Of a DNA stretch of 64,000 nucleotides, positions 10,501 to 46,866 are shown piece after piece. The stretch's first letter is position 1, and the number at the start of each line of letters is the position of its first letter. A program made the translations under genes and the position numbers. The stretch is taken from the NCBI GenBank assembly GCA_964187785.1, contig OZ076409.1:58654001-58718000 (forward strand), written 5' to 3'. The notes under the pieces were generated by a model. The model saw nothing but the letters and a program-made list of their open reading frames with translations. It did no database searches and was not told where the DNA came from. The DNA comes from Amphiscolops sp. MND2022. Taxonomy: Eukaryota.

Positions 10501-13500
10501 GGGCTAGATGACGCTACGACGTAATGCCTGGGAAAACAGAAAAAATTCAGGCTCCAGTCCGGGTTCGAGCCCACTACCAACTGTCTGTCAGGCGGACCCC
10601 CTACCAACCGTGCCACCGTGACTTAAACACTGACTTAACTTAATTACTCTAATCATAAATCACTTCAGTAACTAAATGGAGTTTATCATTAATGTGCTTT
10701 TGGCGAACACATATGATTTTCCTCACTCTACATGAATGAATTTATGAGGGCATGAAATATCAAACGAGTGACTGTTGTCTCACTGACATATACGTGTCTG
10801 TCGTTATTATTAGCACGGTATTGTTCAAAGCAGGTACTGTCGCACATTCATTGGTCACTTAGTGTTGTATGTGGTTATTAGGACTTCTAGCAATTTTTAT
10901 GTGATTAGATTCAGCTAATCTGGGAGTTAAAACGCAAAACATATCGCAATTGCATAACGAATTGCTCGGCAAACTCAGGTCTACAAGGAACGTTGTGATG
11001 CCATGAATTTGCAACCTCATTTCTAGTCGGCGTTTTCGAAGAAAATGAACGACTCTTACAGTGGCTAGTTGTTTTCGTCAGTTCAACGCGATCGGTCCAC
11101 TTTCATTTGTTCATTTTTTTGTTCATTTGTTCAACATCATCAACTTGAACTACGGACGTCCAAAACAGACTCAAAACCCCAGAACCTCGTCCAAAACAAA
11201 AACATCGACGTCCAGAACCTCGTCCAAAACAAAAGCTGAAAAAGAGTTGCGGGTTCGACATTGTAATAAATATCCGTTTATCTTTGCGGTTACGCTCAAT
11301 TGAAGTGACCCAGATTGATTGGAGGGTCGAATTTTGGAATGTTCAAAACCCGTTATCTAGTGTTTATTGACCGTTCCGATCAATCTGGGAGTCTATTTCT
11401 TTGAAGGGAAAAGTATTTTATATGAAAGATTCCTTTAGTTAGATTTCAGTGTTAAGGTAAAGGAAGCATCGATTGAATGAAGGTAATTCAACAGAAGAGT
11501 TTGAGTTGATAATAAATTGCGTGGAAGAAAGTTTTTCAAAACTCCAAGTTGACGGAAATATTCAATTGCTTTTTCCGGAAGTGTGAAAAGTTTGTTCTGA
11601 AGTTCGGAATTGAATCTTGAGAATTGACTTGAAGCCACGTGAAAGATTCTTTTTGAGATGATAACTAACAGCCGGCCTCATTTTGCAACGCAAAATAAAT
11701 TTCCAAAATAGAGATCGGAAAAAAATGAAATACAACTCAATTTTCAGTTCCATCATGATCATAGCTGTTTAAAGGTGCAATTTGTACAGCTGGATATTCC
11801 TTCTCACCCAGTTGAGTTTTGATTAGATATCTTTTGAATTGGGTTGAATATTGAGACAGTGCCTTAATGACACGACCAAAGGCCATAAAGCTCTTGGAGT
11901 CAGTTCTTTTAAAATCCAAATTTGTTTACCAGGTTTCAAATCTGGTTTAGCTGTCCATATCTTTGTTGGTAATAAAGTTGGGTAATATTCTTTGCAGTCG
12001 CTTCCATACGTGGTCAGCCAGTTGTTGCGCAAATTTCCATTGTCGAGTCAAAGGTGTGCTATTGTCATGGTAAAAGATCAAAGGAATTTTTGCCATGAGC
12101 TTTCCCCAAGAGAAAATGATTAAGAGTAAGCGCTTCTATGTCACGAACATCTGTGGAATCACTAGTCAGTTGACGGCAGTTCAAGAAATTTTCTACTTTG
12201 CAAAGTAGTGTTGTAAATGTGTCGTCAGTCAGGGTTTGGCATCCAAGGATGGAGTAAAACGAATCCTTGCAGGATTAAATTAAACGTTCCCACACACCTC
12301 TGAAATGAGAAGCTTGGATAGGATTGAAATACCATTGTATTTCGAAATTGGTCAGAAAGTCATGTACTAGAGTCGAGTCGAAAATTGTTTGTACTTCTTT
12401 CTCGGCAGCAGTGAAGTTTGTTCCCCTGTCAGACACTAGTTGCGCTGGATAACCGCGCCGAGAGAAGAAACGTCGGAGGGCGTTCATAGTTGCATCGCAT
12501 GAGACATCGACACACATTTCCAAATGAACCGCTCTTTTAGTCAGACAAGTAAGTATTAGAGCGTATCGTTTGTTATAGGTAGACGAAGATTGAGAGGCGA
12601 AGGGGTCAAACATGTCAAAATACGTTTGTTGGAAATGGAAAGGTTTTTCATCTGGAAAGCAGAATTCGGGAAGTGGTGACATCTGTGGGAACTCCGCAGC
12701 TGCGTGTTGTCGTCAACATTCGCGGCAACGTTTGAGCATCTTACGAGTCTCATTTGTTATCGACAGATTCCAAAACTCGTTCTGAAGCACGTTTTTGGTG
12801 TGCTGTAGAGGGGAATGACTGTTGGTAACGTGTATATATCGTATGAACAATTTAAACACAGGATGTTTGCCATCTAAGATAATGGGATGTTTTGGCAATA
12901 CGCAGAATCCGATTTCTGGAGTCGGCCTCCTGCTCTAATGAAATCATTGGCAGAAAAGAAAGGACCCAAATGTGTTGAGCGACTGCTTTTTTCAACTGGT
13001 CTGTTGCTGGTTAGAGCTAGCGTCGCGGGATGAAAGGAGTCTCATTGGGACTGACGTAAAAGGTACAGTTTTGCGTTTGATATATCCTTAGGCTGAACGC
13101 AACCATGAGCAATGTCAGGCTGACTTGAGCCTTGCAGCATACTGTTAGTGCTGGAGTCCAGCCAGACATGCTGCTTGATGGCATGTGAGTTGCCTGAATT
13201 GCTCGGATCATTTACCGTCTCATCGTAATCAACACTTGCACGAAAGGATTTGAAAATGCGAACTGCACGAATGACTGTTGCAGTGACACGAACTAGCTTC
13301 GTCCAATTTGAGAAAGTTTCGAAGTCAAGGATGGGTTCTAGTGGAGATTTGCTTCGAGCGCCTTGCATTGTAACTTCTTCATTTCCAATAAAACTGTGAT
13401 GAAGAAGCCATCGATGTTCTGGTTGCTGAAGACATCGTGGGCCAGAGAACCACCTGCACTCAGAGGAGAAAACTTTCAACGGCAAACCTCTGGTTCTATC

Positions 13501-21978: not shown

Positions 21979-23423
21979 TTGGTATCCTTCCAGTGAGATT
22001 TTGGAACTTATTCTATCAAAATACAGTGATTTCAGATCTTTTGCGGTCAGGAAAATGAACATTGGGCTGTTAAAAAGTCGTTGTGTTGTTTCTTTTAGGT
22101 GTTTGATTACAGACATAAGAAGTCTAAGATTTTAACAGCAGAGTCGTCTTATTTCAAGTCCGTTCAGCTAGCTAGTTCTAGGTCTAATCTTCCTGAGATC
22201 TCAGTTAGCTTCTCTGTCGAGAGTAAGCCCGTTTGGTGGATTAGAATCTAATTTTCTCCGGGTAGATATATTCTATCAACTAGGGTAGATTTCATTCATT
22301 TACATTAATAAGAAAGTGACAGTAACAGGATGAATCTGAGAAGCTTGTTACAGGATATATTAAGTGAAGTGTCTTCTAAGATAATTAGCTTTCAAATGGA
22401 ATTACATCTATTAATTACTTGGGCTGAGAGTTCAGATATCTCTGAATTATAGAATCTTTGAGGACATGTATCATGGCATCACAATCAACCGGGAATTTGA
22501 AAAAAAATAAAATTACATATATGCACTTTGGGTTTGAGGAGTTGTAAAGTTTGTGTTTCAAATGTTAAAATTTTTGTTTCAGATGTTATATGCATGGGTT
22601 TGTTTTATATGTGATATGCATGAGTTTCGTTCTGAAATGTACCATACTTGAGGAGTGAGAACAACCTTAGATGATTTGACTTCTTACGTCATAGACGATT
22701 CAATTGGTGCAAAAAGTTTCAGTTTCTTTCAGTTTCGTTGACTGACAGTTTTGTTCAAGTTTTTATTGACAACAATTTTTTAATTCATGTTCTTTTTCGT
22801 GTCAGCGTATCAGCCATCTGCTTGTTTGAAAGAAAATTTTTTTTCATCAACATGAGTTAGTCAGCATTAAAAACTTTTCAAGTTGAAGAATTAAAGTGTG
22901 TTGTCAATGAGTTGTGAACCAACAGTGGCGGGTTTTTGAACCAAAAGTGAAGAAGTGTTGAAAAGTCAAGGTTCAAGTGAGAGTTCATTTTCAACAAAAG
23001 TGACGAGAAAAACAGAAGCAAGAAGTTCAGAAAGCAAAAAACACTTGCAAGTTTCAAACATCGAGAAGTTTCAAAAATGAGAAGTTAAAGTTTTGAAAGG
23101 TTCAAAAGAAAAATTTTGAGAAATTTTGGAAAAGCTTTTGGGGAAGTAAAATAAAGAAATATGAAGCATGTTATGTAAACAAAAATTTTTGTCAAAAATC
23201 TTCGAAAGTTTTTGTACTTTACGTAGGACTTGTGTTCTGTAAAAGATGTGGATTCTAGATGTATTGAATAGTTCAATAGAGATATAATTTGCGGTTACAA
23301 AGTATTTACGGACTCAAATTTTGTGGGGGGTTTAGCGACAAAGGTGGGCAATTATAAATGATTATGAAAAGTATGATTATGCAATAATAAGATTAAATAA
23401 GAGTATACAATATTAAGATTACA

Positions 23424-24259
23424 TTATGGATTAACAATAAATAAGATTATACAGTAGTTTAGAGTTTCAATAAAGTTTGAAATTGGCGGCAAGTAGAGAA
23501 AGGAGTCAACGTTGTAGTGGTGGCCGTGAAGAAAGACCAGTGAAGAGTTGAGTGTAGTGGCGGCCGTGAAGAAAGACCAGTGAAGATGACAGAGGAAGAA
23601 GCAGGTTGACAAAGTTGAAGAACCCATAGTGACGTTGAATTATGTTGACCATCTGGAAGGTGTGCACGAAGCAGTGAGAAGTGTCAGCGATGTAGGAGAA
23701 GTTCTTTGGAGGAGTGATCAACAACTACATCTCGAGGCATCATCGATGAAGGATGAAGAAGTGAAGAGGAGATGTACTTAAAGAGTGCGAGAATGTAAGT
23801 ATATTGTTTATGACAATAAAGGATGTTGTTGCGGTGGATGAGCTTGATGTTGGAGCGGGTCATATATTTCCAATTTTTGTGTATATCCAAAATCTTGGAC
23901 CATATTGTTGAAAGCGTCGGTTGCTTCTTGAAGAGCTGCGCGAAAATAGTGGTCTTTTGTAGTGGAGGATGAATTAAGAACGAAAACGACATTTGACGCC
24001 GTTTCGCAGATAGCAATTTTTGGGCCATCAGGATGATTGCGTGAATATTGGTCGAATGTTATCTTTTTTTCTTGATTTGAGTAACGTTATAGAGAACTTT
24101 CAAGAAGGCAATAAGGGATTTTGGAGTCACCTTATTTTTAATAATTTCGAGAGAAAGTTTATATGCCATGGTGTGAAATATGGCGGCTTTGAGGCTGTGA
24201 ACTTTTGAAAGATTTGAAGTCATAGTAATGATATCTTCTGTTTCAGCGTTGGGAGCCAT
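23424..24259 (-). pseudogene. Accessory ORF 2 of the Gypsy-like element (unknown, basic protein, frameshifted)
   Basis: ATG ORF 24259-24059 (MAPNAETEDII...) appears to continue by frameshifts into 24028-23684 (LIHPPLQKTTIFAQLF...) and beyond. Same strand and composition as the element. Confidence 0.5.
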
Positions 24260-24672
24260 TGTGATGAAATTCTGAAGAGCGTGAGGAAAGAGAAGTGGAG
24301 ATGTTTTGAAAGAACGCTGAAGGAGGAAGAAGAAGAATAGATGTTTCTAAAACAAAAGAAGTTTAAGAAAATTGACAATGACAAGCCAAAGGTGTTCAAA
24401 AAAATGGTGCTAAAATGTATCATATTTTGGTGCTATTATATATTGTTTTTAAGGTGTCTTGTAGCGTAATTTTTATGTGTAACATAGGCAAAGAATTGTA
24501 AATGTGTTCATGTACTTTAGGGCAAGGAGAGTATGTACTGTAAAAGTAAAAAAACTCCTGAGAATTCATTCAGAAAAGGAAAAGAAAGTGTTACCTTTAG
24601 GTAGTTTAAATATGTACCATAGAGTGTACCAGAGGAGAAAAACTAAGAAATTTGTATTACCTGTAGAAGAGT

Positions 24673-25999
24673 TCAATGAAGATTAGTTGAATTAAAAAGA
24701 GTAGTTATGGATTCCAAAGCAGGTTGAATTGCTTGGGATGATTGGGTGATGCGTTGAGAGTCTAGATCAAGTGTTTGTAAGTGTTTGTGTGTTCTGTCAT
24801 AGCAGTGTAGTATATGTGTGAATGTGGTGATGGGTGTTTCAGAAGGAGTTCGTTTATATGGGTCTAAGAGATTTGTTATATCGCGAAGTGTTCGATTGTT
24901 CAAGACAGAAGAAAGTTTGTCAGGAGTGTTTTTCATTGGTGAGGAAGGCAATTTGTGTTCTGATTTATGTTCAGCTTGTACCATAAACGAAATGGTTTTG
25001 GCTGCAATAAACAGAAGTTCGTTATAGGAGTATGTCTGTTTCTATAGAGCTGTATAATATGTTTTATCTTTGTCAACAAGCAGAGAAGAGACAAGATGTT
25101 TAATAACGGTGAGAGGTTTTACTATTTGAGTAGGAACGTTGCAAGGCAACAAAAAATCATCGAATTGTATAAGGTATTCTTGAGGTACAATAAGTGGGCG
25201 TGAAGTGCTATTCTTATGGAAGCAAACAGTAGTACTGTTTTATAGGATCGTAGTTTCGAAGATATCCTGTTATACAAGAGTGATCAAGAGTGTACATATT
25301 TGTCATTGTGAAGCGTGATGTATATTTGTAATTGACGAAAATGTAATTTTTTGGTTTTGTGTGCAGTACAACTTTAGTGTATGTTTGATGATGAGTAGCT
25401 TTTTGAGATACAGAGAGAAAGGACGGATCAGTTTCGTCTGTTTTTAAGTCGTCTATAGATGGGCGAAGAAAGTTAATATGCAGAGAAAAGATTTTGACTC
25501 CATTGTCAAGCCAGTATTGGTATGGACCCAAGATTTTTGAAGCGATTGATGTGAAAAAGTCTTCATTTTTGTCATATAAGCGGAATGAATAGTCTGTAGG
25601 ATGCATGTAGAGAGAAGTTAGTTGTGCTTTGAAGATGAAATCATCATGAGAAACAAGTGAGATCAAATGATCATCACGATTTGTAGAAAGAGAAGTTTTG
25701 GGAGATATGAAAGGAGGATAGATTGGTGAAGAAAGAAAGACAGGATTTTTCATGATTTAATATCGTTTTTTCGGAGGAGGTGGTGTTGCGTGTGTATGAT
25801 CAATATCATTGAGTGGAGTAGAAACTTTCGATGTATCATGTTCAATTTTTTCTTGTTCCATTTGTTCTAGAGAAGTGGTAGGTATTGGTTCAGAAGTGTC
25901 AATATATAAAACAGGAGAATCATTTAGGAAAGGTCTTGTTGTGAGATCTGCTGTAGCTTGTTCAAGATAATTTTGTAGATCTACTTGTGCTTGTGTCAT
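24673..25999 (-). pseudogene. Accessory ORF 1 of the Gypsy-like element (unknown, roughly 440 codons when repaired)
   Basis: ATG at 25999 (MTQAQVDL...PPPPKKRY) is in frame with 25753-25214 across one stop. A shifted frame continues (HKNSTSRPLIVPQEYLIQFDDFLLPCNV...) towards 24984-24673. Confidence 0.6.
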
Positions 26000-26431
26000 T
26001 GTGTTGAAAGAAAAAACATCAACAATCACAGTGATATCTATTCCAAGAGGCCTTAGCACTTTAAAGTACTGTAAACTACAAGTACTGTAAATACACTAAC
26101 GAGTTTGTCATTTTTTGAAGGAGGGTTTTTGAGAACTGTGAGGATGATGGGCATGCTATTTATTTGAGGAATGTGAATCTCTACAAGAGTTTCGAGAGTT
26201 GGGGGAGTAGCAATTTTGAGAGAATTTTAAAGAGAGGAAAGGTGCAAAGGAGTGGAGATTTCAAGAGACGAAAGTTATAAAGGAGGAGTGAAGTGTTCCA
26301 GAAGATAGTTGACAAGCAAACTGAGAGAGAGTTCAAGAAGAAAGTTCAAGAGGATGGCGGAGGAAAGGGATAATTTACCCGTGAATAGATTTTAATAGGT
26401 GTATCCGTATTAGAGGTGACAGAAGTATTAA

Positions 26432-28738
26432 TTAAGGTGTCATGTTGAGTGACTGAATTGTCATTCGGATGTGAGTTTGTAGTGGAATAATTAGGAAATG
26501 AAGGTTGATGTTCACAAGAATGAAGCGCAGAGGGTTGAAGAGTAATCGGATGAGAAAAATGATGTCTTTTCGGAAATAATTTAATTTGGGTATTTGGAGT
26601 TTAATAGGACGTTTAGTATAAAAAGGTGGATGGGAAGTTATACCGGTAGAATGGTTATTTAAATTTGTTGAATTGTGCGAGAGATGATCTAGAGATTTGG
26701 ATTTTAAAATGGATTTTTTTGGTTTTTTTAATTTGAGTATCATGAAGGTCGTTGACCATTTGTGCTGTAAGAATGTTAAATAAACTATGTGCTATAGAAC
26801 TAAACAAAGTAATATTGTTTTTAAGATTATATTTATTAGATATTGTTTTGTAAAATTTGACCATAAGCGAGAGAGTGGCTTGTACAAAAAGAAATGTAGA
26901 AAAGTATATGTCACATTGAGTAAGAATATAACAAGGGTATCCAAAAAGTGCAATAAAAGCATCTGAAAACCATGTAGGTGTAAAAAGAGGAGTTAGGTTT
27001 AAAAGTTTATCATGTAGTCCAAAACGTAATGTATTGTAGGGATTACCAGTACCGTGAGGGGAATTTGTATCATAATCAGGAGTATTAGATGAAATGAAAA
27101 AATAACTAAGGGCTTTACCAAGTAATTGAAGTGTAGAGTCAGAATGTTTAGAAAATAAGATGCGGTTCCAGAATTGATCAAGTTCAGCATTGGAGTATAT
27201 ACCGGCATCTTGGGCTGTAAAGGTGTTAGGACGTATTGTAGTTTTAATTTGAGAAGATGTGAACATTAATGGAGGTTTGCGTTTAATAGGTTCAGGTCCA
27301 AGAATGTAAAAATCTTGATCATCAGAATCAGGGACTAGTTCAATAATATTTCGTGGGTTATTATCACATGCAATTGGAGTAGCATAGTCATAGGTTTGTC
27401 TTGTGATAGGATCAACGTACATCAGAGTATCTTTAAAGTGTATAGGTGTACGGTCAAAGCATCGATCAGCTTTGTATAAAGGAGATAGGAAATGAGGACA
27501 GTCATAGAGACAGGCGGTGGAGCCTTCCACGTACAAAAAGTTACTTCGATCACATGTTAAAAGGAAACCAGCAAGTTGAGGGTTTTGTACTGACATTGCG
27601 AGTATTGTAAAAAGTTGATTTCGTTCTAATTCGCATATTGTATGAAGAGTATTAAGTTCTTGTACTGTCATGGAGCAAAAAACGTGGTTAATAGTGTAGT
27701 CAATTTTTGTATTTATATGTGCATCATAGTCAATGGTAGCAAAGTTGTTTGGTTTGAAACATTTAACGCAGGGAATGTGAATTTGTTACTTGAGGTGTCC
27801 GATACTATTTTGCCAGAAATGTTTTCATCAATCATAGAGTGAGGATAGGGTTGTCCTGTATGCATATTGAATTCGTCAGTATATGTAACAAAAAGATCTG
27901 AATATTGTGTTGAATAAAGTGGGTCTGGTTTACCACAAAAAGTCTGAGCTGTGGGAAAGACTTCAAAACGTGAAAGTCTAGGATTATTAGGATGTTGTGT
28001 ATGAGGAGCATAAACATATGGATGTTCTGTATCTTTAATACCAGAAGTTGGTTTGGGTTCTATTGAATGTGGGGAATGTACAAAGGAATCGGTTTCGATC
28101 CAGTATCTATCTTCAATTTTAGTCATACGTCCAATACAGTCTTGTAGTGTGAAAATTAAACAGAAATCATCAATAAACCAAACAAGGTTAAAAGGAGTTT
28201 TCGTTGTGGGTTTGCAAAAACCATCTGCAAAACAGCAGGGTAATGTATGTCCATCTATTGTCATAACGTTTGCTGTATCGTCATAAATAAGTTCTACTTC
28301 AGAATTTTCTAATCGCCAACTAACTAAGTTTACTTCGAATTGGTGATGGGCAGGACAGTTATGGTAAGGATTTTGAGTAGGATCATATATCCAATTTTTG
28401 TCTGCGGGCATAAAGTTAAACGTACTTGTGTACATTTTGTTTAATTGATATACAGTGAAAGGACTTTGATATTGTTCTAATCGTTCTTGAAAGTAATGAT
28501 CTTCTAAGAGTGTAAAAGTTTTACTGTACTGTAGGTTGTTCAATATTTTGTCATTTGTACCATCAAGATGTCTTATAATGTTTTTACATTCTAAAGGATC
28601 AAGAGTAACAGGAAGTGGTTCCATACAGTTCTATCAACACGACGATATTTGACCGAACCTTGAAAGCAAATCTTTCTTTCCTTTTTTGCATAAGCGACGC
28701 ATTTGAAGGCTTTTATGCGTTTGGTTTTTGCTCTGACA
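26432..28738 (-). pseudogene. env 3' portion: class III fusion glycoprotein-like ectodomain (chuvirus G / herpes gB type), TM segment and tail
   Basis: Cys-rich ORFs 28624-27713 and 27671-26655 with HTICELERNQL...QNPQLAGFLL...EGSTACLYDC...RCFDRTPI...YVDPITRQ...ATPIAC, then a hydrophobic C-terminal segment (FIALFGYPCYILTQ...FSTFLFVQATLSLMV). The family assignment is from recalled motif spacing, not a search. Confidence 0.75.
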
Positions 28739-29315
28739 ATGGTGATTAAAATTATATTGGCATAATGTAATATAGGAACTTCGGTTTGATTTGCAACAGT
28801 TAATGTTTTTGAAGTGTTATGTGTTCCAATGTCTGAAGTGTGATTTGGTCTAATATCTAAGAGTTTTGTAAGAGTTGTGTATGTTGGGTAGTTTAACACA
28901 TAGATAGATGCACCGCTATCTAAAAGAAAGGCAATTTCCAGTCTGGATGGGTTATCTCTTTGTGTTATACTTGATGGTGTATGAACATATAGAGTATAAA
29001 ACCAACTTGTAGGTGTTACAGCATTTGCCATTGCCGTTGGGTGTTACATGTGTACTTCAATTTTTATAGGGTCAAATTGGTGTTGTGGTTGTATCATATT
29101 AACTTTGTTTCTAGGATTGGAGTGTGAACGGGTTCTAGAAAATCTAGATTCTCTTGGTGAAGAAGGTGGTCTGAATGAATTTGTATTTTTTGTTAAATTA
29201 TTGTCTCTGGAATAGGAGCGTGATCTATATCTAGGGCGAGAGTTGTGTCTATGAGGAGATCTATATGAAGATCTGTATGGAGAGCAGTAAGACCTTGAAT
29301 CGCGTCTGTAAGTAT
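28739..29315 (-). pseudogene. Third partial copy: gag RS-rich tail and protease N-terminus inserted into env
   Basis: Matches 35638-36213. The frame switches from protease (ANIILITI) to env (VRAKTKRIKAFKC) near 28738. Confidence 0.88.
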
Positions 29316-30830
29316 GATGACTCGCATGATGAATGTCTGAAGGAGCTTCAGTGCATTGTTTCACATTAAGTAAATTAAATTGTCTCAAATTATGTTGTTT
29401 TGCACAGTCATAATGAGAAACCATAAGGTTTGTAATAATCGGATCGTCCGATGGAAGGAAATTTTCTGTATCAGAAGGTGTTATAGGTATTGAAAAGGTG
29501 AAGTTGAATAAGTGTAAATAGAGTATCAGATTTGCTATATAAAAGGTTGTGTAGAGTTTAGAAAGAGGTAGTATATTTAAGACCGGAGAATGGGTTACAA
29601 ATGTGATTTCGCCATATGTAATAGTAGAAAGATTGAGATCTTGTTCAAATTCAATATGTACTACTTCAAAAGGAGCAGGAGAGGTTTTATGTTCTATCTT
29701 AGAAACGTGAAATTTTGGATGTGGATTTAAACCTTGAAATTTGTCTTTGACTTCAAATTTAAGATCTAGATTAGGTGTCTGAAGGCGTTTTAGTTCTGTT
29801 TCTTTTCTTTTATGAGACAAGAGATCGGTATTTGTAATAAAGCGTTCTGAAAGAATAGAAAATCGAGGATCGTTCTGTGGATCGTAGATGGTTATTCTAT
29901 CGACTCGAAGTGGATAATCAGCGAAATTCGGAGTTGGAGGTCTAGATTGATCTGCAGTATAATATTCAGGTAGTCCAATATGTGCGGGAACAGGAGTAGG
30001 TATTAGGACTTCAGAGAAGAGATTTCCAGAAAGGAATGCAGTTTGAGCGTCTGAAGAAAATAAAGAGGCGCTTTCAAAACCAGATGTAAAATAAGGAGAA
30101 GGTATAAGTTCGTACGAATTTGTTTCAGAAGACAACGGTTGTCCGTATTGTCGTACAAGTCGTAAAGCAGAATTGCTGGAAAGAGCGGATAAATTAAGTG
30201 TGGAAGTATCTGTACTAAGTCTGCGTGAAGGAATGTCTCGATGATTATATCTATGTTGTGGTACAAAAAGTCAGCTTGTAGTATCTTGTGATGGAGTATA
30301 CTCTGATGTATTGTCTAAGAGATTTGATAGTGATGTAGAAGGTTTTCGAAGAGGTTTTAGGGAATGATAGAGTTTAGAAGAAGTTTTGCTGAGTTCTGAT
30401 GGTAATTTCAGTGGAGGTAGTCGTGTATATTCAGTGTCAGCAATGTGTACAAGATTAAACTGAGGTTGAAGTCTAACAGTTTTAATAGCTGTATGATGTT
30501 TGTAATTGACGTAATGTTCAACAGTTTCAGGGTTTGGTATGTGTACTATAGGAGTATTAATAGGAGTTTGTTGAGTACGAGTGGTAATAGGAATTTCATT
30601 TATAGATGGTCTATGAAGGATAGATGAAGAAGATGTTTCAGAAACGTATGATCTTGTTCTCTTAGAAGGAGTAGTACGGGTTACATTACGAGAGTTTGTA
30701 GTGTTTGATATTGAAGATTCAGGAGTAGAAGGAATACTTGGAGCTGATGGAGATATATCAGGAGAAGATCCAGGATTCTTGAAATGGGGTTTCAACGGGT
30801 TATCGTTGTGATAACTTGTTAGCGATTATC
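29316..30830 (-). pseudogene. env 5' portion, copy B: long S/T/P-rich leader, internal signal-like segment and ectodomain start
   Basis: ORFs 30795-30271 and 30135-29044 are in the same frame, separated by one TGA. The hydrophobic stretch LYTTFYIANLILYLHLFNFTFS precedes YDCAKQHNLRQFNLLNVKQC. Confidence 0.72.
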
Positions 30831-30884
30831 TTTCATTCAGCTTTGGTCGACTAGTTTCGAGTGGGCCAGTGGATAGAATGATGA

Positions 30885-33800
30885 AGGTTACAGTTTCGAG
30901 GGTGTTATAAAAAGTCTATATTCTAATTTGGGTTGATGTCGTAGATTATAAGTAGTTTTCGTAGTTCTGTCAATTAGAGGAGGAAGTGAATCTGTTTGAT
31001 TATGAGAAGGGTGTCTTGATCTGTCACTAGGGATCTTAGTGTGAGGGGTATTAATTATGTTCTTGTATTAAGAGTAGTCATTGGTTGGGGGAGTTAAAGA
31101 CTTGTGATTGGATGTTACAGATGGTGTATCTTCTTGAGGGAAATTTTGATTGGAAGTACTGAATGGTGTCATAAATGTTTGAGAAGAAACTTCTGTAGTG
31201 GATGGTGTCATGAATTTTTGAGAGTCTTTGTCTGATAAGGATTCGTCTGAATTAAAAGGGGAAGAATCACTGTTTGCATATTTGTTGGGTTGTGGAATTT
31301 GGAAATGAGTTGTATCTGAAAAGCGCATGAAACTACCCAAATGTGGGTATAGAAGTGGTTTTTTCGGATAATACGGAATCATATGATTACGGTGAACATG
31401 TATTGTAAAGCCATCTGGTGCAAGAAGTTCATATGTAACATCTGACAGTCTCTCAATAATTTTGTATGGTCCAATCCGAAGGGGTTTTAGTTTGTCAGAA
31501 AAATGTACGTGTATGAAATTTCGTTTTAAAACAAAAGTGCCAATAGGGAGTGGTTTACCTTCGTAGTAGGTTTTTGTAATGTAAGCGTGCGAGTTGATTT
31601 TCCGTAAGGTGTTTTCATATACTGTGGAATATATTTGTAACATAGCAGTTTCTACAGCGAGAAACCATTGTGGAATAGGTTTAGAAAGTGTTCTGTAAAA
31701 AAACGGATTAAGATCTGATTTGTCATAATATGAGTGTTCTGGAAGTTGAGAGCAATAGCGTGAAATACCTGATTTAGAGGTGTCTCTAGTAAAGTTTAAA
31801 TCGAAAGTAAGGGGTATTCTGGGTCTTGTGTGAAAAACAATTTCATGAGTAGAAACATTGAGTTCTGAAAGTTGTTGAGAATTTTGTGCATAAGCGTACA
31901 TTTGGACTTGGAATGGCCAATTTTTAGGTGTATCATGTAAGAACATTCGTAAATGTGTACCAAGATTTCTGTTCTGTACTTCGACAAGGCCATTTGTCCA
32001 AGGAGAGTAAGCTGTTCTAGGAGAATGACGAACTCCCATAAGTGTTCAGAGGTGTGCCATTTCCTTGTTTACATATTCTGATCCACGATCAGTAACAAGA
32101 TATATGGGTGGTCCAAATTTAAAAATCCAATGGTGTAAGAGAGTTTTGATTGCAGTTTTGCATTATTTGATTTGAAGGGTACTGTAACAACAAAGTGGCT
32201 AAAAGCGTCAATTATGACATGTATATAAGATTTGTTGTGTGAACGAGGATTAATAGGTCCTTTAGTGTCCATTGAAATGCGGTAGTTAAAAGACGGAGCA
32301 TGTTCTGAAAATGATTGTGTAGGAGCAGTTTGGATTTTCATATTGAAGTGTTTATTACGTTGACATTCGATACAGTCATGTATGAAAATGGAAAGCCATT
32401 TTTCGCGAAATGGATCGTAGAAATATTGTGAGAATGTATTATATGTAATTTTGATACCAGTATGAGAGTGTTTACGAATTTTGTTAAAAACAGTTTTGAA
32501 CATTCGAAAACGAAGACATATTCGAATAGTAGCGTGTGCAAAATTTGGAGTAGAAGGTTGATTTAGAACAGTAGGGCTTTTAATAAAGAGGCTAATAAGG
32601 TTTGTGGAATCATCTATGAAAAGTTGTGAAAATCTTTTGTATTATTCATGTAGAAAAGGAGTGCCAGTGATGAGTGGTGTTAGAGTCTCAGGTTTTTCAT
32701 TATTAATGATCCAAGAATAAACAGTTTTAAGAACCGGGTCTTTGGATTGTTGTTGTTGAAGTGTTGTTATGTCTAATGAGTAGTCATCCGGGAGAAAGAA
32801 ACCTTGAAAATAGTTTTTGTACTTAAAAAATGATGTATCATAGAAAGGTATAATCTGTGGACAATGTGTAAGGGATGGTAAGTTTGTTTGTACATTTATT
32901 GCAGAAACATTGTTTTGTGGGGTGTTAGATGTCGACTTGTTGAGAGTAGAGTAGTTTTCTGTTTGTAATGTTGTGTCAGGTAAGAAGGAGGAGTCAGATT
33001 TTGGAATTCTTGTACATATATGATCTTCGTCGTCACTTTTAATATCAGTATCAATGAGTAAGAGAGATTGCTGATGAAGGGTTTTTTGTTCTTTTTTATA
33101 AGTGTTTTGAATTTTGTTTGAAAAGGAGTTATAGATTTAAATGAGAAGGATTGTAAAGGTTTGACAACAATCTCATTTCCTTTGTCATTGATACGAATGG
33201 AAAATTGATCTGTACCATAATCGACAAGGATTGGGGGAGAGTCATGTTTTTGATGATGTAAGATTTCTTCTTGTTTAATTCAGTAATGTACGGGTGCAAG
33301 AGTGTTGTTTTGTAATATTGCGAAATCAATTTGTGACGGTAGTTGTTTGTGTTTTAATTGGTATAGTTGTAATTCAGTTTTTGTAAAAGAGCGACTTAAC
33401 ATGTCAGCAACAGAAAGGTTTTTCCAGGAGTGTGGTTTAATTTGAGTTTTGAAAATTTTGTTAATTGCATTTGAGCTCTTTAGAAACGAGGACTAAGGTT
33501 ACCCTTTTTTGTAAAACAATGTAATAGAGGTTTGTGATCAGTAAAAATATGTATTGGATGAGGAGAACCAATGATAAGAAATTCATAAATTTGAAGAGCA
33601 TGTACTACACCAAGAAGTTCTCTGTCAAGTGTTGAAAGCTTTTGTTCTTGTGGGTTGAGTATACGAGAGGTGTACGATATAACTTTCATTTTGTTATGTT
33701 CATTTAATTGGAACAAGACAGCGCCTAATCCAATAAGTGAAGCATCAACTGTAATGAAAAATGGGTGTTTTGTGTTTGGTATTGTAAGTTCTGTTTCAGA

Positions 33801-36213
33801 GGTAAGAGACATTTTGATTTTTTGAAAAAGACTTTCGTGTTCATCTGTCCATTTCTTTCCAAGGAGTGTTTTCATGTAAAAGGTCGTAAAACGGTTTAAG
33901 GTTAATATGTAGTTTTTCAATAAATTTGGTGTAAAGGTTGAGTGCGCCAATGAAACTCATTAGAACAACTTTGCCAGTTGGTGAAGGGATTATATGAATA
34001 GCTGCAATTTTCGAATGAATTTGTTTATTTGTATTGTAACCAATTTCATGTCCAAGAAATTTGACTTTGAGGAGCATGAAAAAGGATTTTTCAGGGGCTA
34101 GTTTAAGATTATTTTTTGTGCTGATAATGTGTAATTGCTCTATGAGTTGGAATATGTGTTCTTTAGAGCCAGATAAAAGTAATATATCGTCGATATAGAC
34201 AAGGGCAAAACCTCGTTCTATAAGAGTTTTAATTTAAAGAAGGTAGACATTTGTTGTGTAAAGAAATTTGGGAGTCTATTGAGACCATAAAAACCTCGTA
34301 TAAAAGCAAAGAGTTCATCTCCTGAGGAGAAACTTGTTAATTTAATAGTGTCTTCATCAAGGGGTGTATGTGCATAGGCATACATAAGATCAATTGCAGA
34401 TTTGCTTTTTATTTGCTCGTGCTAATTGTGGAGCGAGAGATTCAATAGGCCAAGATTCATCAGATTGTTTTGTATTTTAGTTAAGATATCGAGCATCTAA
34501 TACACATTTTATAGTGTCTCCTTTGGGGATTATAATAAGAGGATTTAAATAAGTTGTACCATAAATTGGTTTGTCTTGTGGAGAGGAACTGATTTGTTTA
34601 TGATGTTATATTTTTCTAGTTCTTTGAGAAGTGCATTAAGTTTGTCTCTATAGTGAATAGGGACTTTGGAAGGACGTTGTGTCATAAGTTGAGCATTAAG
34701 TTTAAGTCTAATACGAAAGGGAGTTGAAATTTTACCAACATCGTTCTAATGAGTTGCATAACATGTTTTATATTTGAGTAACATATTGCAAAGGGTAATG
34801 TACTCAGTGTCTGTAAGGTCAGACAATTGGAAATTGAATTTGTTGATAAATTTCAGATTTTCAGAAGTATATGGTAAAGAAGGAAAAATGCGTTTTTCAG
34901 AAGTGTGAGAAGTAGGTTGGACGTTGTATAAAGGGGAAGTTTGATTTGGCATATCCGAATTTGTCATATAAATTTGATGTAAGGAAAATTGAGGAGGAGG
35001 AGTTGTATGATCATCATAGTATATAATATAATTGGTTTGTGGAACTGGTTCAGTTATTTCAGGATGGTATGTATGAGTAACATTATGTATTAAAGTATTA
35101 AAATCATTGACTTGGAAGAATTTAGGTTTTTCATTTGTATTTGGAACTTCAATATATACAATAGGTCCTGTAGGTAATGTTGCAACATGTTTGGAGGTGT
35201 TGTGAATAATAGTTGCACAAATGTCTGGTTTGTTATCTGTGAATACTTCAATAAAATTGAAATTTGTACGAAACTTGTTAGCAAAATAGGTGTGTGGTAC
35301 CGAAGGGAAGAAGTGGTTTTGTGGTGTAGTTGTAAAATGAAGATTATGATATTTTTTATTGGAAAGTGTGCAATTTTAGAAGACTTGGGTTTTAGACGTA
35401 TTTGAGTTTTTGAATTATTTCTATAAATGTATGAAAAATATGGGCAGTCTTTAGAAAGGAGTGTTGTGAATGTTGCATAATTTGGGTGTGTTTTTGATTG
35501 GTATTTGAATTCTAGTGTAAACTGTTGTATGCTTATGTTCTGTATATTGTCGTCAAAGAAGGGTGTACCAATGATATTGTATTTGATATCAGCTACTGCA
35601 AAAGGTACTGGAAAGTAACGAGCATTATCGTCAATAGTGGTGATTAAAATTATATTGGCATAATGTAATATAGGAACTTCGGTTTGATTTGCAACAGTTA
35701 ATGTTTTTGAAGTGTTATGTGTTCCAATGTCTGAAGTGTGATTTGGTCTAATATCTAAGAGTTTTGTAAGAGTTGTGTATGTTGGGTAGTTTAACACATA
35801 GATAGATGCACCGCTATCTAAAAGAAAGGCAATTTCCAGTCTGGATGGGTTATCTCTTTGTGTTATACTTGATGGTGTATGAACATATAGAGTATAAAAC
35901 CAACTTGTAGGTGTTACAGCATTTGCCATTGCCGTTGGGTGTTACATGTGTACTTCAATTTTTATAGGGTCAAATTGGTGTTGTGGTTGTATCATATTAA
36001 CTTTGTTTCTAGGATTGGAGTGTGAACGGGTTCTAGAAAATCTAGATTCTCTTGGTGAAGAAGGTGGTCTGAATGAATTTGTATTTTTTGTTAAATTATT
36101 GTCTCTGGAATAGGAGCGTGATCTATATCTAGGGCGAGAGTTGTGTCTATGAGGAGATCTATATGAAGATCTGTATGGAGAGCAGTAAGACCTTGAATCG
36201 CGTCTGTAAGTAT
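30885..36213 (-). pseudogene. gag tail and pol (PR-RT-RH-IN), copy B
   Basis: ORF fragments 35929-35090 (PR), YIDD near 34185, 33950-33480 (RNase H), 32503-31068 (IN). Multiple frameshifts. Confidence 0.92.
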
Positions 36214-37730
36214 GATGACTCGCATGATGAATGTCTGAAGGAGCTTCAGTGCATTGTTTCACATTAAGTAAATTAAATTGTCTCAAATTATGTTGTTTTG
36301 CACAGTCATAATGAGAAACCATAAGGTTTGTAATAATCGGATCGTCCGATGGAAGGAAATTTTCTGTATCAGAAGGTGTTATAGGTATTGAAAAGGTGAA
36401 GTTGAATAAGTGTAAATAGAGTATCAGATTTGCTATATAAAAGGTTGTGTAGAGTTTAGAAAGAGGTAGTATATTTAAGACCGGAGAATGGGTTACAAAT
36501 GTGATTTCGCCATATGTAATAGTAGAAAGATTGAGATCTTGTTCAAATTCAATATGTACTACTTCAAAAGGAGCAGGAGAGGTTTTATGTTCTATCTTAG
36601 AAACGTGAAATTTTGGATGTGGATTTAAACCTTGAAATTTGTCTTTGACTTCAAATTTAAGATCTAGATTAGGTGTCTGAAGGCGTTTTAGTTCTGTTTC
36701 TTTTCTTTTATGAGACAAGAGATCGGTATTTGTAATAAAGCGTTCTGAAAGAATAGAAAATCGAGGATCGTTCTGTGGATCGTAGATGGTTATTCTATCG
36801 ACTCGAAGTGGATAATCAGCGAAATTCGGAGTTGGAGGTCTAGATTGATCTGCAGTATAATATTCAGGTAGTCCAATATGTGCGGGAACAGGAGTAGGTA
36901 TTAGGACTTCAGAGAAGAGATTTCCAGAAAGGAATGCAGTTTGAGCGTCTGAAGAAAATAAAGAGGCGCTTTCAAAACCAGATGTAAAATAAGGAGAAGG
37001 TATAAGTTCGTACGAATTTGTTTCAGAAGACAACGGTTGTCCGTATTGTCGTACAAGTCGTAAAGCAGAATTGCTGGAAAGAGCGGATAAAGTAAGTGTG
37101 GAAGTATCTGTACTGAGTCTGTGAGAAGAAAGGTCTCGAAGATTATATCTATGTTGTGGTACAAAAAGTCAGCTTGTAGTATCTTGTGATGGAGTATACA
37201 CTGATGTATTGTCTAAGAGATTTGATAGTGATGTAGAAGGTTTTCGAAGAGGTTTTAGGGGAGGATAGAGATTAGAAGAAGTATTGCTGAGTTCTGATGG
37301 TAATTTTAGTGGAGGTAGTCGTGTATATTCAGTGTCAGGAATATGTACAAGATTAAGCTGAGGTTGAAGTCTAACAGTTTTAATAGCTGTAGGATGTTTG
37401 TAATTGACGTATTGTTCAACAGTTTCAGGGTTTGGTATGTGTACTATAGAAGTAATAATAGGAGTTTGTTGAGTACGAGTGGTAATAGGAATTTCAGCTA
37501 TAGGTGGTCTATGAAGGATAGATGAAGAAGTTGTTTCAGAAACGTATGATCTTGGTCTCTTAGGAGTAGTAGGGGTTACATTACGAAAGTTTGTAGTGTT
37601 TGATATTGAAGATTCAGGAGTAGAAGGAATACTTGGAGCTGATGGAGATATATCAGAAGAAGAATCCAGGATTCTTGAGATGGGGTTTCAACAGGTTGTC
37701 GTTGTGATAACTTGTTAGCGATTATCTTTC
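36214..37730 (-). pseudogene. env 5' portion, copy A
   Basis: Homologous to 29316-30830. The ORF 37033-35942 translation is identical to 30135-29044 and fuses to the gag tail at ...DIHHAS|HHTYRRDSR. Confidence 0.72.
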
Positions 37731-37783
37731 ATTCAGTTTTGGTGGACTAGTTTTGAGTAGGCCAGTGGATAGAATGATGAAGG

Positions 37784-40700
37784 TTACAGTTTCGAGGATG
37801 TTATAAAAAGTCTATAATCTAATTTGGGTTGATGTTGTAGTTTATAAGTAGTTTTCGTAGTTCGGTCAATTAGAGGAGGAAACGAATCTGTTTGATTATG
37901 AGAAGGGTGTCTTGATCTGTCACTAGGGCTATTAGTGTGAGGTGTATTAATTATGTTCATGTATAAAGAGTTGTCATTGGTTGGGGGAGTTAAAGACTTG
38001 TGATTGGATGTTACAGATGGTGTATCTTCTTGAGGGAAATTTTGATTGGAAGTACTGAATGGTGTCATAAATGTTTACGAAGAATCTTCTGTAGTGGATG
38101 GTGTCATGGATTTTTGAGAGTCTTCATCTGATAAGGATTCGTCTGAATTAAAAGGGGAAGAATCACTGTTTGCATATTTGTTGGGTTGTGGAATTTGGAA
38201 TTGAGTTGTATATGAAAAGCGCATGAAACTACCCAAATGTGGTTCTAATGTAGAAGTGGTTCTTTCGGATAATACGGAACCATATGATTACGGTGAACAT
38301 GTATTGTAGAGCCATCTTGTGCAAGAAGTTCATATGTAACATCTGACAGTCTATCAATAATTTTGTAAGGTCCAATCCGAAGGGGGTTTAGTTTGTAAGA
38401 AAAATGTACATGAATGCAATTTCGTTTTGAAACAAAAGTACCAATAGGGAGTGGTTTACCTTCGTGGTAGGTTTTTGTAATGTAAGCGTGCGAGTTGATT
38501 ATTCCTAAGGTGTTTTCATATACTGTGGAATATATTTGTAACATAGCAGTTTCTACAGCGAGAAACCATTGTGGAATAGGTTTAGAAAGTGTTCTGTAAA
38601 AAAAACGGATTAAGATCTGATTTGTCATAATGTGAGTGTTCTGGAAGTTGAGAGCAATAGCGTGAAATACATATTTTAGAGGTGTCTCTAGTAAGGTTTA
38701 AATCGAAATTAAGGGGTATTCTGGGTCTTGTGTGAAAAACAATTTCATGAGGAGAAACATTGAGTTCTGAAAGTTGTTGAGAATTATGTGCATAAGCGTA
38801 CATATGGACTTGGAATGCCCAATCTTTAGGTGTATCATGTAAGAACATTCGTATATGTGTACCAAGATTTCTGTTCTGTACTTCGACAAGGCCATTTGTC
38901 CAAGGAGAGTAAGCTGTTCTAGGAGAATGACGAACTCCCATAAGTGTACAGAGATGTGCCATTTCCTTGTTTACATATTCTGATCCACGATCAGTAACAA
39001 GATATATGGGTGGTCCAAATTTAATAATCCAATGGTGTAAGAGAGTTTTGATTGCAGTTTTTGCATTATTTGATTTGAAGGGTACTGTAACAACAAAGTG
39101 GCTAAAAGCGTCAATTATGACATGTATATAAGATTTGTTGTGTGAACGAGGAATAATAGGTCCTTTAGTGTCCATTGAAATGCGGTAGTTAAAAGACGGA
39201 GCATGTTCTGAAAATGATTGTGTAGGAGCAGTTTGGATTTTCATATTGAAGTGTTTATTACGTTGACATTCGATACAGTCATGTATGAAAAGTATGAAAA
39301 AGGAAACCCATTTTTCGAGAAAGGGAATGTAGTAATATTGTGAGAATGTATTATATGTAATTTTGATACCAGTATGAGAGTGTTCATGAAGTTTGTTAAA
39401 AACAGTTTCGAACGTTCGAAAACGAAGACATATTCGAATGGTAGCGTGTGCAAAATCTGGAGTAGAAGTTTGATTTAGAACAGTAGAGCTTTTAATATAG
39501 AGGCTAATAAGATTTGTGAAATCATCTATAAAAAGTTGTGAAAATCGTTCGTAACATTCATGTAGAAAAAGAGTGCCAGTGATGAGTGGCGTTAGAGTTT
39601 CAGGTTTTTCAATATTAATGATCCAAGAATAAACAGTTTTAAGAACCGGGTCTTGGGATTGTTGTTGTTGAAGTGTTGTTATGTCTAATGAGTAGTCATC
39701 CGGGAGAAAGAAACCTTGAAAATAGTTTTTGTACTTAAAAAATGATGTATCATAGAAAGGTATAATCTGTGGACAATGTGTATGGGATGGTAAGTTTAAT
39801 TGTACATTTATTGCAGAAACATATTTTTGTGGGGTGTTAGATGTCGACTTGTTGAGAGTAGAGTAGTTTTCTGTTTGTAATGTTGTGTCATGTAAGAAGG
39901 AGGAGTCAGATTTTGGAATTCTTGTATATATATGATCGTCGTCATCACTTGTAATATCAGTATCATTGAGAAAGAGAGATTGTTGATGAAGGGTTTTTAT
40001 TGTTCTTTTTTATAGGTGTTTTGAACTTTGTTTGAAAAGGAGTTACAGATTTAAATAAGAAGGGTTGTAAAGGTTTGACAACAATCTCATTTCCTTTGTC
40101 ATTGATACGAATGGAAAATTGATCTGTACCATAATCGGCAAGGATTGGGTGGGAGTCATGTTTTTGTTGAGGTAAATTTTTTTCGTGTTTAATTAAGTAA
40201 TGTACGGGTGTTATTTTGTAATATTGCGAAATCAATTTGTGACGATAGTTGTTTGTGTTTTAATTGGTTTAGTTGTAATTCAGTTTGTGTAAAAGAGCGA
40301 CTTAACATGTCAGCAACAGAAAGGTTCTTTCCAGGAGTGTGGATTATTTTGAGTTTTGAAATTTTTGTTAATTGCATTTGAGCTCTTTAGAAACGAGAAC
40401 TAAGGTTACCCTTTTTTGTAAAACAATGTAATAGAGGTTTGTGATCAGTAAAAATATGTATTGGATGAGGAGAACCAATGATAAGAAATTCATAAATTTG
40501 AAGAGCTTGTACTAAACCAAGAAGTTCTCTGTCAAGTGTTGAAAGCTTTTGTTCTTGTGGGTTGAGTATACGAGAGGTGTACGATATAACTTTCATTTTG
40601 TTATGTTCATTTAATTGGAACAAGACAGCGCCTAATCCAATAAGTGAAGCATCAACTGTAATGAAAAATGGGTGATTTGTGTTTGGTATTGAAAGTTCTG

Positions 40701-43239
40701 TTTCAGAGGTAAGAGACATTTTGAGTTTTTGAAAAAGACTTTCGTGTTCATCTGTCCATTTCCAAGGAGTGTTTTCATGTAAAAGGTCGTAAAACGGTTT
40801 AAGGTTAATATGTAGTTTTTCAATAAATTTGGTGTAAAGGTTGAGTGCGCCAATGAAACTCATTAGAGCAACTTTGCAAGTTGGAGAAGGGATTATATGA
40901 ATAGCTGCAATTTTCGAATGAATTGGTTTAATTGTATTGTATGTCCAAGAAATTTGACTTTGGGGAGCATGAAAAAAGATTTTTCAGGGGCTAGTTTAGG
41001 ATTATTTTTTGTGCTGATAATGTGTAATTGCTCTATGAGTTGGAACATGTGTTCTTTAGAGTCAGATAAAAGTAATATATCGTCGATATAGACAAGGGCA
41101 AAACCTTGTTCTATAAGAGTTTTAAAGAAGGTAGACATTTGTTGTGTAAAGAAATTTGGAAGTCTATTGAGACCACAAAAACCTCGTATAAAAGCATAGA
41201 GTTTATCTCCTGAGGAGAAACTGGTAAGTTTAATAGTGTCTTCATCAAGGGGTGTATGTGCATAGGCATACATAAGATCAATTGCAGATTTGTACTTTTT
41301 ATTTGCTCGTGCTAATTGTGGAGCGAGAGGTTCAATAGGCCAAGATTCATCAGATTGTTTTGTATTGTAGTTAAGATGTCGAGCATCTAATACACATTTC
41401 ATAGTGTCTCCCTTGGGGATTACAATAAGAGGAATTATATAAGTTGTACCATAAACTGGTTTGTCTTTTGGAGAGGAACCGATTTGTTTATGATGTTATA
41501 TTTTTCTAGTTCTTTGAGAAGTTCATTAAGTTTGTCTCTATAGTGAACAGGGACTTTGGAAGGACGTTGTGTCATAGGTTGAGCAATAACTTTAAGTCTA
41601 ATACGAAAGGGAGTTGAAATTTTACCAACATCGTTCTTATGAGTTGCATAACATGTTTTATATTTGAGTAACATATTGCAAAGGGTAATGTACTCAGTGT
41701 CTGTAAGGTCAGAAAATTGGAAATTGAATTTGTTGATAAATTTCAGATTTTCAGAAGTATATGGTAAAGAAGGAAAAATGCGTTTGTCAGAAGTGTGAGA
41801 AGTAGGTTGGACGTTGCATAAAGGGGAAGTTTGATTTGGCATATCCGAATTTGTCATATAAATTTGATGTAAGGAAAATTGAGGAGGAGGAGTTGTATGA
41901 TCATCATAGTATATAATATAATTGGTTTGTGGAACTGGTTCAGTTATTTCAGGATGGTATGTATGAGTAACATTATGTATTAAAGTGTTAAAATCATTGA
42001 CTTGGAAGAATTTAGGTTTTTCATTTGTATTTGGAACTTCAATATATACAATAGGTCCTGTAGGTAATGTTGCAACATGTTTGGAGGTGTTGTGAATAAT
42101 AGTTGCATAAATGTCTGGTTTGTTAACTGTGAATACTTCAATAAAATTGAAATTTGTACGAAACTTGTTAGCAAACTAGGTGTGTGGTACTGAAGGGAAG
42201 AAGTGGTTTTGTGGTGTAGTTGTAAAATGAAGATTATGATATTTTTTTAATGGAAAGTGTGCAATTTTAGAAGACTTGGGTTTTAGACGTGTTTGAGTTT
42301 TTGAATTAATTCTATAAATGTATGAAAAATATGGGTAGTCTTTAGAAAGGAGTGTTGTGAATATTGCATAATTTGGGTGTGTTTTTGATTGGTATTTGAA
42401 TTCTAGTGTAAACTGTTGTATGCTTATGTTCTGTATATTGTCTTCAAAGAAGGGTGTACCAATGATATTGTATTTGATATCAGCTACTGCAAAAGGTACT
42501 GGAAAGTAACGAGAATTATCGTCAATAGTGGTGATTAAAATTATATTGGCATAATGTAATATAGGAACTTCGGTTTGATTTGCAACAGTTAATGTTTTTG
42601 AAGTGTTATGTGGGCCAATGTCAGAAGTGTGATTTGGTCTAATATCTAAGAGTTTTGTAAGAGTTATGTATGTTGGGTAGTTTAACACAGAGATAGATGC
42701 ACCGCTATCTAAAAGAAAGGCAATTTCCAGTCTGGATGGGTTATCTCTTTGTGTTATACTTGATGGTGTATGAACATATAGAGCATAAAACCAACTTGTA
42801 GGTGTACATCATTTGCCATTGTTGTTGGGCGATACATGTGTACTTCAAATTTTATAGGGTCAGATTGGTCCTGTGGTTGTATCATTTTAACTTTGTTTCT
42901 AGGATTGGAGTGTGAACGGGATTTAGAAAATCTAGATTCTCTTGGCCTAGAAGGTGGTCCGTATGAATTTGTATATTTTGTAAAATTATTGTCTCTGGAA
43001 TAGGAGCGTGATCTATATCTAGGGCGAGAGTTGTGTCTATGAGGAGATCTATATGAAGATCTGTATGGAGAGCGATAAGACCTTGAATCGCGTCTGTAAG
43101 TATCATATCGTGATCTAGAGTATTGTGGAGGGGTAGTACTTTTGTCATAGCTAAATCTATCTCTGGATGTAGAACGGTATCGATTTTGTGAAAAGTTTCT
43201 GTTGTAAGAGTTGTTACGTGAGGTATGCCGCAGCACCAA
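37784..43239 (-). pseudogene. gag tail and pol (PR-RT-RH-IN), copy A
   Basis: ORF fragments 43239-42754 (RS-rich), 42688-42176 (PR), 41402-40893 (RT, YIDD), 40863-40387 (RNase H), 39244-38245 (IN DDE core and GPY). Confidence 0.93.
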
Positions 43240-46657: not shown

Positions 46658-46866
46658 AAGGTGCCCCCCGAATCCCTGAAGGTGCCCGAAGCCCTGAAGG
46701 CGCCCCTTCGAAGCCCTGAAGGCGCCCCTTGGAAGCCCTGAAGGCGCCCTTTCGAAGCCCTGAAGGTGCCCCCGGAAGCCCCGAAGGTGCCCACCGAAGC
46801 CCAGAAGATGCCCTCAGAAGCCCTGAAGGTGCCCCGCGAAGCCCCGAAAATGCCTCTTGAAGCCCC
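46658..46866 (+). repeat. GC-rich minisatellite, about 10 units of 18-22 bp (aaggcgccccttcgaagccctg)
   Basis: Directly visible tandem units just 3' of the PBS. Confidence 0.92.

Follow-up and report, generated by a model that had tools for sequence, protein, structure and literature searches.

The stretch of DNA analyzed here (the window: 64,000 nucleotides of contig OZ076409.1 from Amphiscolops sp. MND2022) holds a retroelement copy whose minus strand carries, downstream of env, two open reading frames, ORF A and ORF B. The locus raises the question of whether these frames are accessory genes of the element or passengers and, if they are genes, what they might do. A preliminary description had proposed at least two unknown accessory ORFs in this position, a repairable frame of about 440 codons from ATG 25999 and a second, basic frame from ATG 24259, in a layout resembling that of complex retroviruses. 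Accessory genes flanking env are a textbook mark of complex retroviruses, as set out in passages of PMC2238898. The retroelement copy in the window proved to be a decayed and rearranged member of a Ty3/gypsy family whose elements measure ∼18 kb and bear a gB-type env; the features of the window are the following.

22061..22483, minus strand: 3' LTR, ∼422 bp, starting with TG and matching the 5' LTR of other copies.
22484..23807, minus strand: non-coding 3' region, with variable short tandem repeats directly after ORF B, where it is hypervariable.
23808..24259, minus strand: ORF B, ∼150 codons; a frame change near 24074-24062 breaks the window copy.
24343..24357, minus strand: pyrimidine tract plus YAG, a predicted splice acceptor ahead of ORF B.
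24589..24598, minus strand: second donor-like motif, AG/GTAAC, in the A-B spacer, from the alignment and its conservation line.
24655..24665, minus strand: CAG/GTAAT motif ∼10 nt past the ORF A stop, which fits a splice donor and also an acceptor.
24673..25999, minus strand: ORF A, ∼441 codons; stops and a frame change break the window copy.
25760..25783, minus strand: PPPPKKRY, the NLS-like basic cluster of ORF A, with a putative NLS function.
26346..28738, minus strand: 3' part of env, broken, encoding a gB-like, Monjiviricetes-type fusion glycoprotein (PF24664, E 1.6e-17).
28740..29318, minus strand: gag-pol piece of 579 bp inside env, from self-BLAST; a rearrangement peculiar to the window copy.
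29320..29615, minus strand: 5' part of env, from sequence comparison.
29558..30773 (end approximate), minus strand: ORF X between pol and env, decayed, with a predicted CUG start at 30773.
28740..43225, minus strand: gag end, pol (RT, RNase H, integrase), X and env start, doubled by a ∼6.9-kb tandem duplication with 96% identity.

ORF A of the window copy carries stops at 25759 and 25044, with a further break (stop or frame change) around 25217-25209. No further conserved ORF that could be a third post-env gene was seen in the 3' region among 16 copies, and since positions 23807-22484 are non-coding and the 3' LTR follows at 22483-22061, there are only two post-env genes. The two proposed ORFs are real, although "at least two" becomes exactly two, with three further accessory ORFs lying upstream, and the lower bound of 23424 given for the accessory region was too far out because coding ends at 23808. 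The strand skew said to be shared by the ORFs was also observed (GC skew of +0.41 to +0.46 at 23001-26000 of the window), but it extends over the non-coding 3' region and is therefore not evidence of coding. The 579-bp gag-pol insert is missing at the same place in related loci that span it, and the window copy is 5'-truncated near 43225, so that the two small ORFs found upstream of gag in other copies are missing. The 6.9-kb tandem duplication (28740-43106) has its junctions in env and at the gag end, is present in the window copy only, and may be of biological or assembly origin. Elsewhere in the window, we noted a perfect 314-bp inverted repeat with zero spacer (4828-5455), possibly an assembly artefact or a recent foldback; a second LTR-bounded element of ∼6.5 kb, with ends (11237-11670 and 17370-17783) that are ∼91% identical and broken minus-strand ORFs; and a GC-rich array of 21-22-bp repeats (46649-46865).

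A first look at the genome with the A region returned 2935 DNA-level candidates, 40 of them scored, and 8456 protein-level candidates, 94 of them scored; these totals are candidates and not copy numbers. For ORF integrity in the window's own subfamily, 37 of the 40 best DNA matches were fetched. This subfamily is the older one, with LTR pairs (found in 13 of 20 upstream stretches) that are 88-98% identical. Younger elements had LTR pairs at least 99.7% identical in 6 of 10 examined; their LTRs are ∼415 bp with TG..CA ends, a primer site starting with TGG follows, and 4-bp target duplications were readable in 3 of the 10 young LTR pairs. The element lineage is recently active and high-copy. The young layout of ∼17.9 kb runs from gag-pol (∼2690 aa) through X (420 codons), an uninterrupted env (908 aa; PF24664, E 8.8e-23, above the cut-off), A (471 aa) and B (159-161 aa) to ∼1.1 kb of non-coding sequence and the LTR. 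With two small hydrophobic ORFs in addition, young copies, whose LTRs are 99.8-100% identical, have seven ORFs, and five of these are accessory (the two small hydrophobic ORFs, X, A, and B).

Pfam domains in the young element occur in the order gag, RVT_1, RT_RNaseH, Integrase_H2C2, rve, and SH3_Tf2-1, and the best PDB match of Pol was Ty3 Gag-Pol (E 8.6e-52, compared with 7e-19 for foamy Pol). On the basis of the TG..CA LTRs, the primer site, the 4-bp duplications, the Gag/RT/RNase H/integrase order, and a Pol nearest to Ty3, we assigned the element to Ty3/gypsy (Metaviridae) as one bearing a gB-type env. Membership in Retroviridae was rejected, with Ty3 and a second non-retroviral enzyme outranking all retroviral RT and IN chains, as was a retroviral (class I) Env, the env matching the Monjiviricetes fusion family instead. 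Troyka was likewise set aside, with CG...CG ends, a 3-bp duplication, and no env according to passages of PMC12440569, versus TG..CA ends, a 4-bp duplication, and an env here. The comparison with complex retroviruses held for the accessory genes 3' of env, which are kept under selection, but not for Pol and Env, which are non-retroviral; these assignments indicate that the element is complex-retrovirus-like in layout only and is not a retrovirus. The Gag of one copy (L121:2718-4600) has a ∼640-aa extension ahead of the capsid domain, made up of a conserved ∼280-aa N-terminal part (dN/dS 0.21) and then a long Pro/Thr/Asn-rich linker, and an Arg/Ser-rich tract follows the nucleocapsid region.

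The frame from ATG 25999 aligned over its full length, with 88% identity, to a natural uninterrupted 441-aa ORF of another copy, which bears out the repairable ∼440-codon ORF; the NLS-like PPPPKKR reported in it was recovered as PPPPKKRY at 25783-25760. ORF A was uninterrupted in 8 of the 37 related loci of the window's older subfamily and stop-free in 92 of the 94 scored matches of younger subfamilies. Between subfamilies, the changes at codon positions 1, 2, and 3 numbered 22, 23, and 150, respectively. Using natural ORFs only, 8 pairs drawn from different subfamilies gave dN/dS values of 0.06-0.13 and 2 pairs within the decaying subfamily gave 0.30-0.37; in one pair the values for A, pol, env, and X were 0.07, 0.08, 0.05, and 0.21, respectively. 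These values indicate that ORF A is under strong purifying selection. The frame from ATG 24259 matched a natural 150-aa ORF (71-85% identity), in agreement with the earlier proposal, although the basic character of the protein is slight, with pI values of 8.6 and 9.2 for two copies. ORF B was uninterrupted, at 149-151 aa, in 7 of the 37 related loci, and its changes at codon positions 1, 2, and 3 between subfamilies numbered 12, 8, and 78; dS was saturated in most pairs, and protein identity in those pairs was 44-89%. The pattern points to strong purifying selection on ORF B as well. We conclude that A and B are functional genes of replicating lineages.

The idea that A and B are passengers or chance frames, or that they belong to a repeat inserted separately, draws on the broken state of both ORFs in the window and in most of the older subfamily (the same 8 of 37 for A), but the ORFs are colinear between env and the LTR in the fetched copies, are intact in young elements, and show a strong third-position excess. 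The young intact copies and the codon-position pattern rule this idea out, and we assign it a negligible probability. ORF integrity and dN/dS in other copies, which the preliminary description had suggested as a check, gave uninterrupted copies and low dN/dS; the region was neither missing nor a separate repeat, its frames being conserved, and the accessory ORFs proved integral to the element, inside its LTRs and conserved across copies.

ORF A has a conserved ∼260-aa core, amphipathic C-terminal helices, and no hydrophobic segment, and its insertions and deletions are mostly confined to the N-terminus and a linker. Its first 70 residues contain 13 D/E compared with 2 K/R; the N-terminus is usually acidic and is variable, the net acidic charge of the first 60 residues ranging from −10 to +9. 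Three distant families supplied 65 distinct full-length ORFs, and 61 of these keep the basic motif (three basic residues plus Tyr). The reading that we favor, tentatively and with somewhat less than even confidence, is that A acts in the nucleus as a trans-activator of expression of the element itself and that B, translated from a predicted spliced RNA, faces the host as a counter-defence protein. According to this reading, A would enter the nucleus through the basic motif, its acidic N-terminus would recruit host transcription machinery, its conserved core would bind the LTR or tandem hairpins in the leader, and it would oligomerize via the C-terminal helices. Nuclear accessory proteins of gypsy elements have precedents in CERV and sORF1, as described in passages of PMC10309623 and PMC11952523, respectively. 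Against the trans-activator reading, no known DNA- or RNA-binding domain was identified in A by Pfam or PDB searches, and its acidic N-terminus is not universal.

Functions for A and B are ones that we infer, since neither protein had a Pfam or PDB match and their folds were uninformative; the transactivator or anti-silencing roles suggested in the preliminary description are likewise putative. Pfam searches with A, B, and their alignments gave no family above the cut-off; PDB sequence searches with A and B gave no match (best E 0.05-0.2), and the same search with the sister families' protein gave none. Homologue searches returned unnamed proteins only among the best 120 of 299, 120 of 532, and 150 of 581 matches, and pattern scans of low sensitivity yielded no confirmed relative in either viral or metagenome contigs. 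By these searches, A and B constitute two new protein families. The AlphaFold2 model of A was unusable (mean pLDDT 34.5). That of B had a mean pLDDT of 54.4 and gave only generic helical-hairpin matches in a fold search (best Z 7.0, rmsd 2.3, 65 aligned); among viral models, nothing was found at E ≤ 0.001, a result that excludes no fold. ORF A may contain a Tudor/SH3-fold reader domain; no Tudor/SH3 family matched A in Pfam or PDB sequence searches, and the model of A was of no use here. A shared beta-barrel among A, X, and the sister-family proteins was not significant and is kept as a lead only: the small beta domain of A compared with the first post-env protein of sister families gave an hhalign E of 0.32, another region gave 0.14, and 0.006 was reached only once the beta domain had been trimmed to a region picked by eye.

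That A and/or B are structural particle proteins, or were captured together with the glycoprotein from a negative-strand virus as nucleoprotein-like or matrix-like proteins, appears improbable. The position of A directly after a Monjiviricetes-type glycoprotein, its size, which fits a nucleoprotein, and its strong constraint, which suits a structural role, are all compatible with such an origin, but no Pfam viral family was matched, the viral contigs yielded no confirmed relative in the low-sensitivity pattern search, families with a related env have different neighbors beside it, and A carries a conserved basic NLS-like motif.

The expression signals were examined in 69 of 73 loci that yielded the segment, representing 59 distinct copies. 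Of the 59, 50 have a pyrimidine tract plus YAG (TAG in 46, CAG in 4) at ∼85 nt upstream of the B start, and 55 have an AG/GT motif ∼10 nt past the A stop. Given the conserved acceptor-like tract before its start, B likely needs a spliced RNA, and it would be read from RNA spliced to the acceptor ∼85 nt upstream of its AUG. In the 5' leader, no sequence was conspicuous as a splice donor, and before A only GTTAG and, in some subfamilies, a ∼45-nt motif were conserved. ORF X has zero Met in its 407-439 codons in several families, and AUG is depleted in all of its frames (0-3 observed vs 6-13 expected, 9 copies). Its conserved stretch opens with a CUG in a strong context (A at −3, G at +4); this codon is present in 23 of the 37 old copies and in 9 of the 10 young ones, and inspection by eye also located it in a distant family. 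dN/dS for X was 0.10-0.26. The absence of AUG together with the conserved CUG predicts CUG initiation of X with leaky scanning to env, and X and env would be expressed from one subgenomic RNA. The splice sites, the CUG start, and the nuclear location are in each case predicted from conservation alone. X of one copy (L120:855-2114) has a conserved ∼110-aa C-terminal domain.

Directly ahead of gag lie two conserved ORFs, 39-40 and 77-78 aa long, that are small and hydrophobic; most of the 21 leaders with a primer-site match contain them.

L121:2241-2360 and 2468-2704: small hydrophobic ORFs in the 5' leader, just upstream of gag.

In all 6 of the copies examined, the leader also contains 2-3 hairpins in tandem, whose outer arms are fixed while the inner stems vary; they may represent a packaging signal or a response element. 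In L121, the hairpins lie ∼290-375 nt past the primer site and share a conserved bulge, and three copies of another ∼45-nt motif stand ahead of them. The same hairpins are central to an unlikely, though credible, alternative in which A is a Rev/CERV-like factor that binds them and exports unspliced genomic RNA and is not a transcriptional activator. With the conserved splice-like signals, the genomic RNA would contain an intron, and CERV is described in passages of PMC10309623 as exporting RNA for the gypsy element Cer1, both of which suit an export factor. No arginine-rich stretch or Cys cluster was seen in A, however, the hairpins could serve as a Gag packaging signal, and the acidic N-terminus suits activation better.

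All 20 loci chosen on env alone carry further ORFs after env. A homologue of ORF A follows env in 8 of the 20; RT identity to the reference is 74-100% in these A-bearing families, compared with ∼45% in families lacking A, and ORF A is fixed in position across the former. Where RT identity is 74-76%, that of A falls to 32-36%, and unrelated ORFs occupy the B slot. One 447-aa homologue of A had no match above 50% in the Amphiscolops genome, and on this ground A likely occurs in at least one other genome. Three of the 20 loci have a single 519-aa post-env ORF with a coiled-coil-like end; one element of this third kind (L158:4058-5614) has an LTR pair 99.4% identical, and its pol leads directly into env with no X. 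The remaining 9 belong to families with a 153-227-codon ORF plus a second ORF, which was a TRAF/MATH protein in 4 of 4 scanned (E 7e-22 to 4e-10).

L160:4215-4964, L163:3862-5010, L165:4308-5057, and L172:4232-5233: TRAF/MATH gene as the last ORF in sister gB-env families.

The small protein preceding the TRAF/MATH gene has an acidic start, a basic motif, and a conserved ∼55-aa C-terminal domain, the same acidic-proline-basic layout as ORF A. Exchange in the last slot was also seen among close relatives. Two elements that are 96-99% identical from pol to A are only ∼70% identical over B and 50-68% directly after it, and pS for this pair was 0.81 in B versus 0.08 in A. The data fit B being an old allele cassette that would have been exchanged by recombination between near-identical elements, since its divergence equals saturation and does not exceed it. 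Synonymous recoding of B past saturation, as in small-RNA escape, was rejected, no pair among 66 lying above z 2.0. It is because the B slot turns over that we read B as host-facing. The captured TRAF/MATH gene in the last post-env slot of sister env families and the fast turnover of that slot could also suggest that A, like B, counters host defence (small-RNA or chromatin silencing, or innate signaling) and does not act on the element's nucleic acid. We regard this as unlikely for A, in which constraint equals that of pol and env and which, unlike B, is not swapped between close elements.

Foamy tas/bet and deltaretrovirus pX are accessory genes of complex retroviruses, with transactivator functions for tas and pX. 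Like these viruses, the element places accessory genes after env and before the 3' LTR and is of similar size, foamy-like fish ERVs reaching 17 kb according to passages of PMC2238898 and PMC6431247, and its conserved splice-like motifs predict spliced expression; it differs in a Pol nearest to Ty3 and not foamy and in its gB-like env, and retroviral accessory proteins gave no sequence match to A or B in Pfam or PDB. The "ancient errantiviruses" of Chary and Hayashi (passages of PMC13524379) share the LTR-gag-pol-env order, the gB-like fusion protein, and many near-identical recent copies; the terms "accessory" and "downstream of env" are absent from the main text of that paper, whereas here there are five further conserved ORFs in ∼18 kb.

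The preliminary description had called accessory genes uncommon in Metaviridae, which is correct as to degree, but LTR elements with single extra ORFs have already been described (passages of PMC6431247, PMC5408684, PMC11952523, and PMC10309623). Cer1 likewise has a gypsy accessory protein, CERV being a nuclear RNA-export factor from spliced RNA (passages of PMC10309623), and Drosophila MDG1 has two small ORFs upstream of gag, sORF1 and sORF2, one of them a membrane protein (passages of PMC11952523). As far as those passages go, each has one or two extra genes and MDG1 is without env; we liken them by description. The planarian Burro giant gypsy elements combine MATH/TRAF domains with a viral-type env, but their cargo is fused in one polyprotein, whereas here separate genes flank env and gag; bdelloid LTR elements carry extra cargo too, but in one ORF3 only (both in passages of PMC6431247 and PMC5408684). 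Anakin is an LTR retrotransposon with a chuvirus-like glycoprotein, but it belongs to BEL/Pao, unlike the Ty3-like Pol here, and accessory genes do not appear in passages of PMC7642597. The literature searched yielded no gypsy element in which a gB-type env is surrounded by five conserved accessory genes, although supplementary tables and Repbase may hold the family.

It is quite possible, if short of probable, that this invertebrate gypsy radiation independently evolved the biology of complex retroviruses: a seven-gene, retrovirus-like infectious agent with its own nuclear trans-regulator from a new protein family, subgenomic expression through splicing and CUG initiation, a pair of small membrane proteins, and, at the 3' end, a counter-defence cassette that can be swapped, represented in sister families by a captured TRAF-domain immune antagonist. 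Five selected accessory genes in a recently active Ty3/gypsy element suggest that the same layout arose independently outside Retroviridae. The element supplies two new protein families, A and B, and a slot that is exchanged or replaced, including by a TRAF/MATH gene. Most of what such elements encode can escape surveys that demand a short pol-env gap or that end at env, and the conflict between retroelement and host in an invertebrate is made testable gene by gene.
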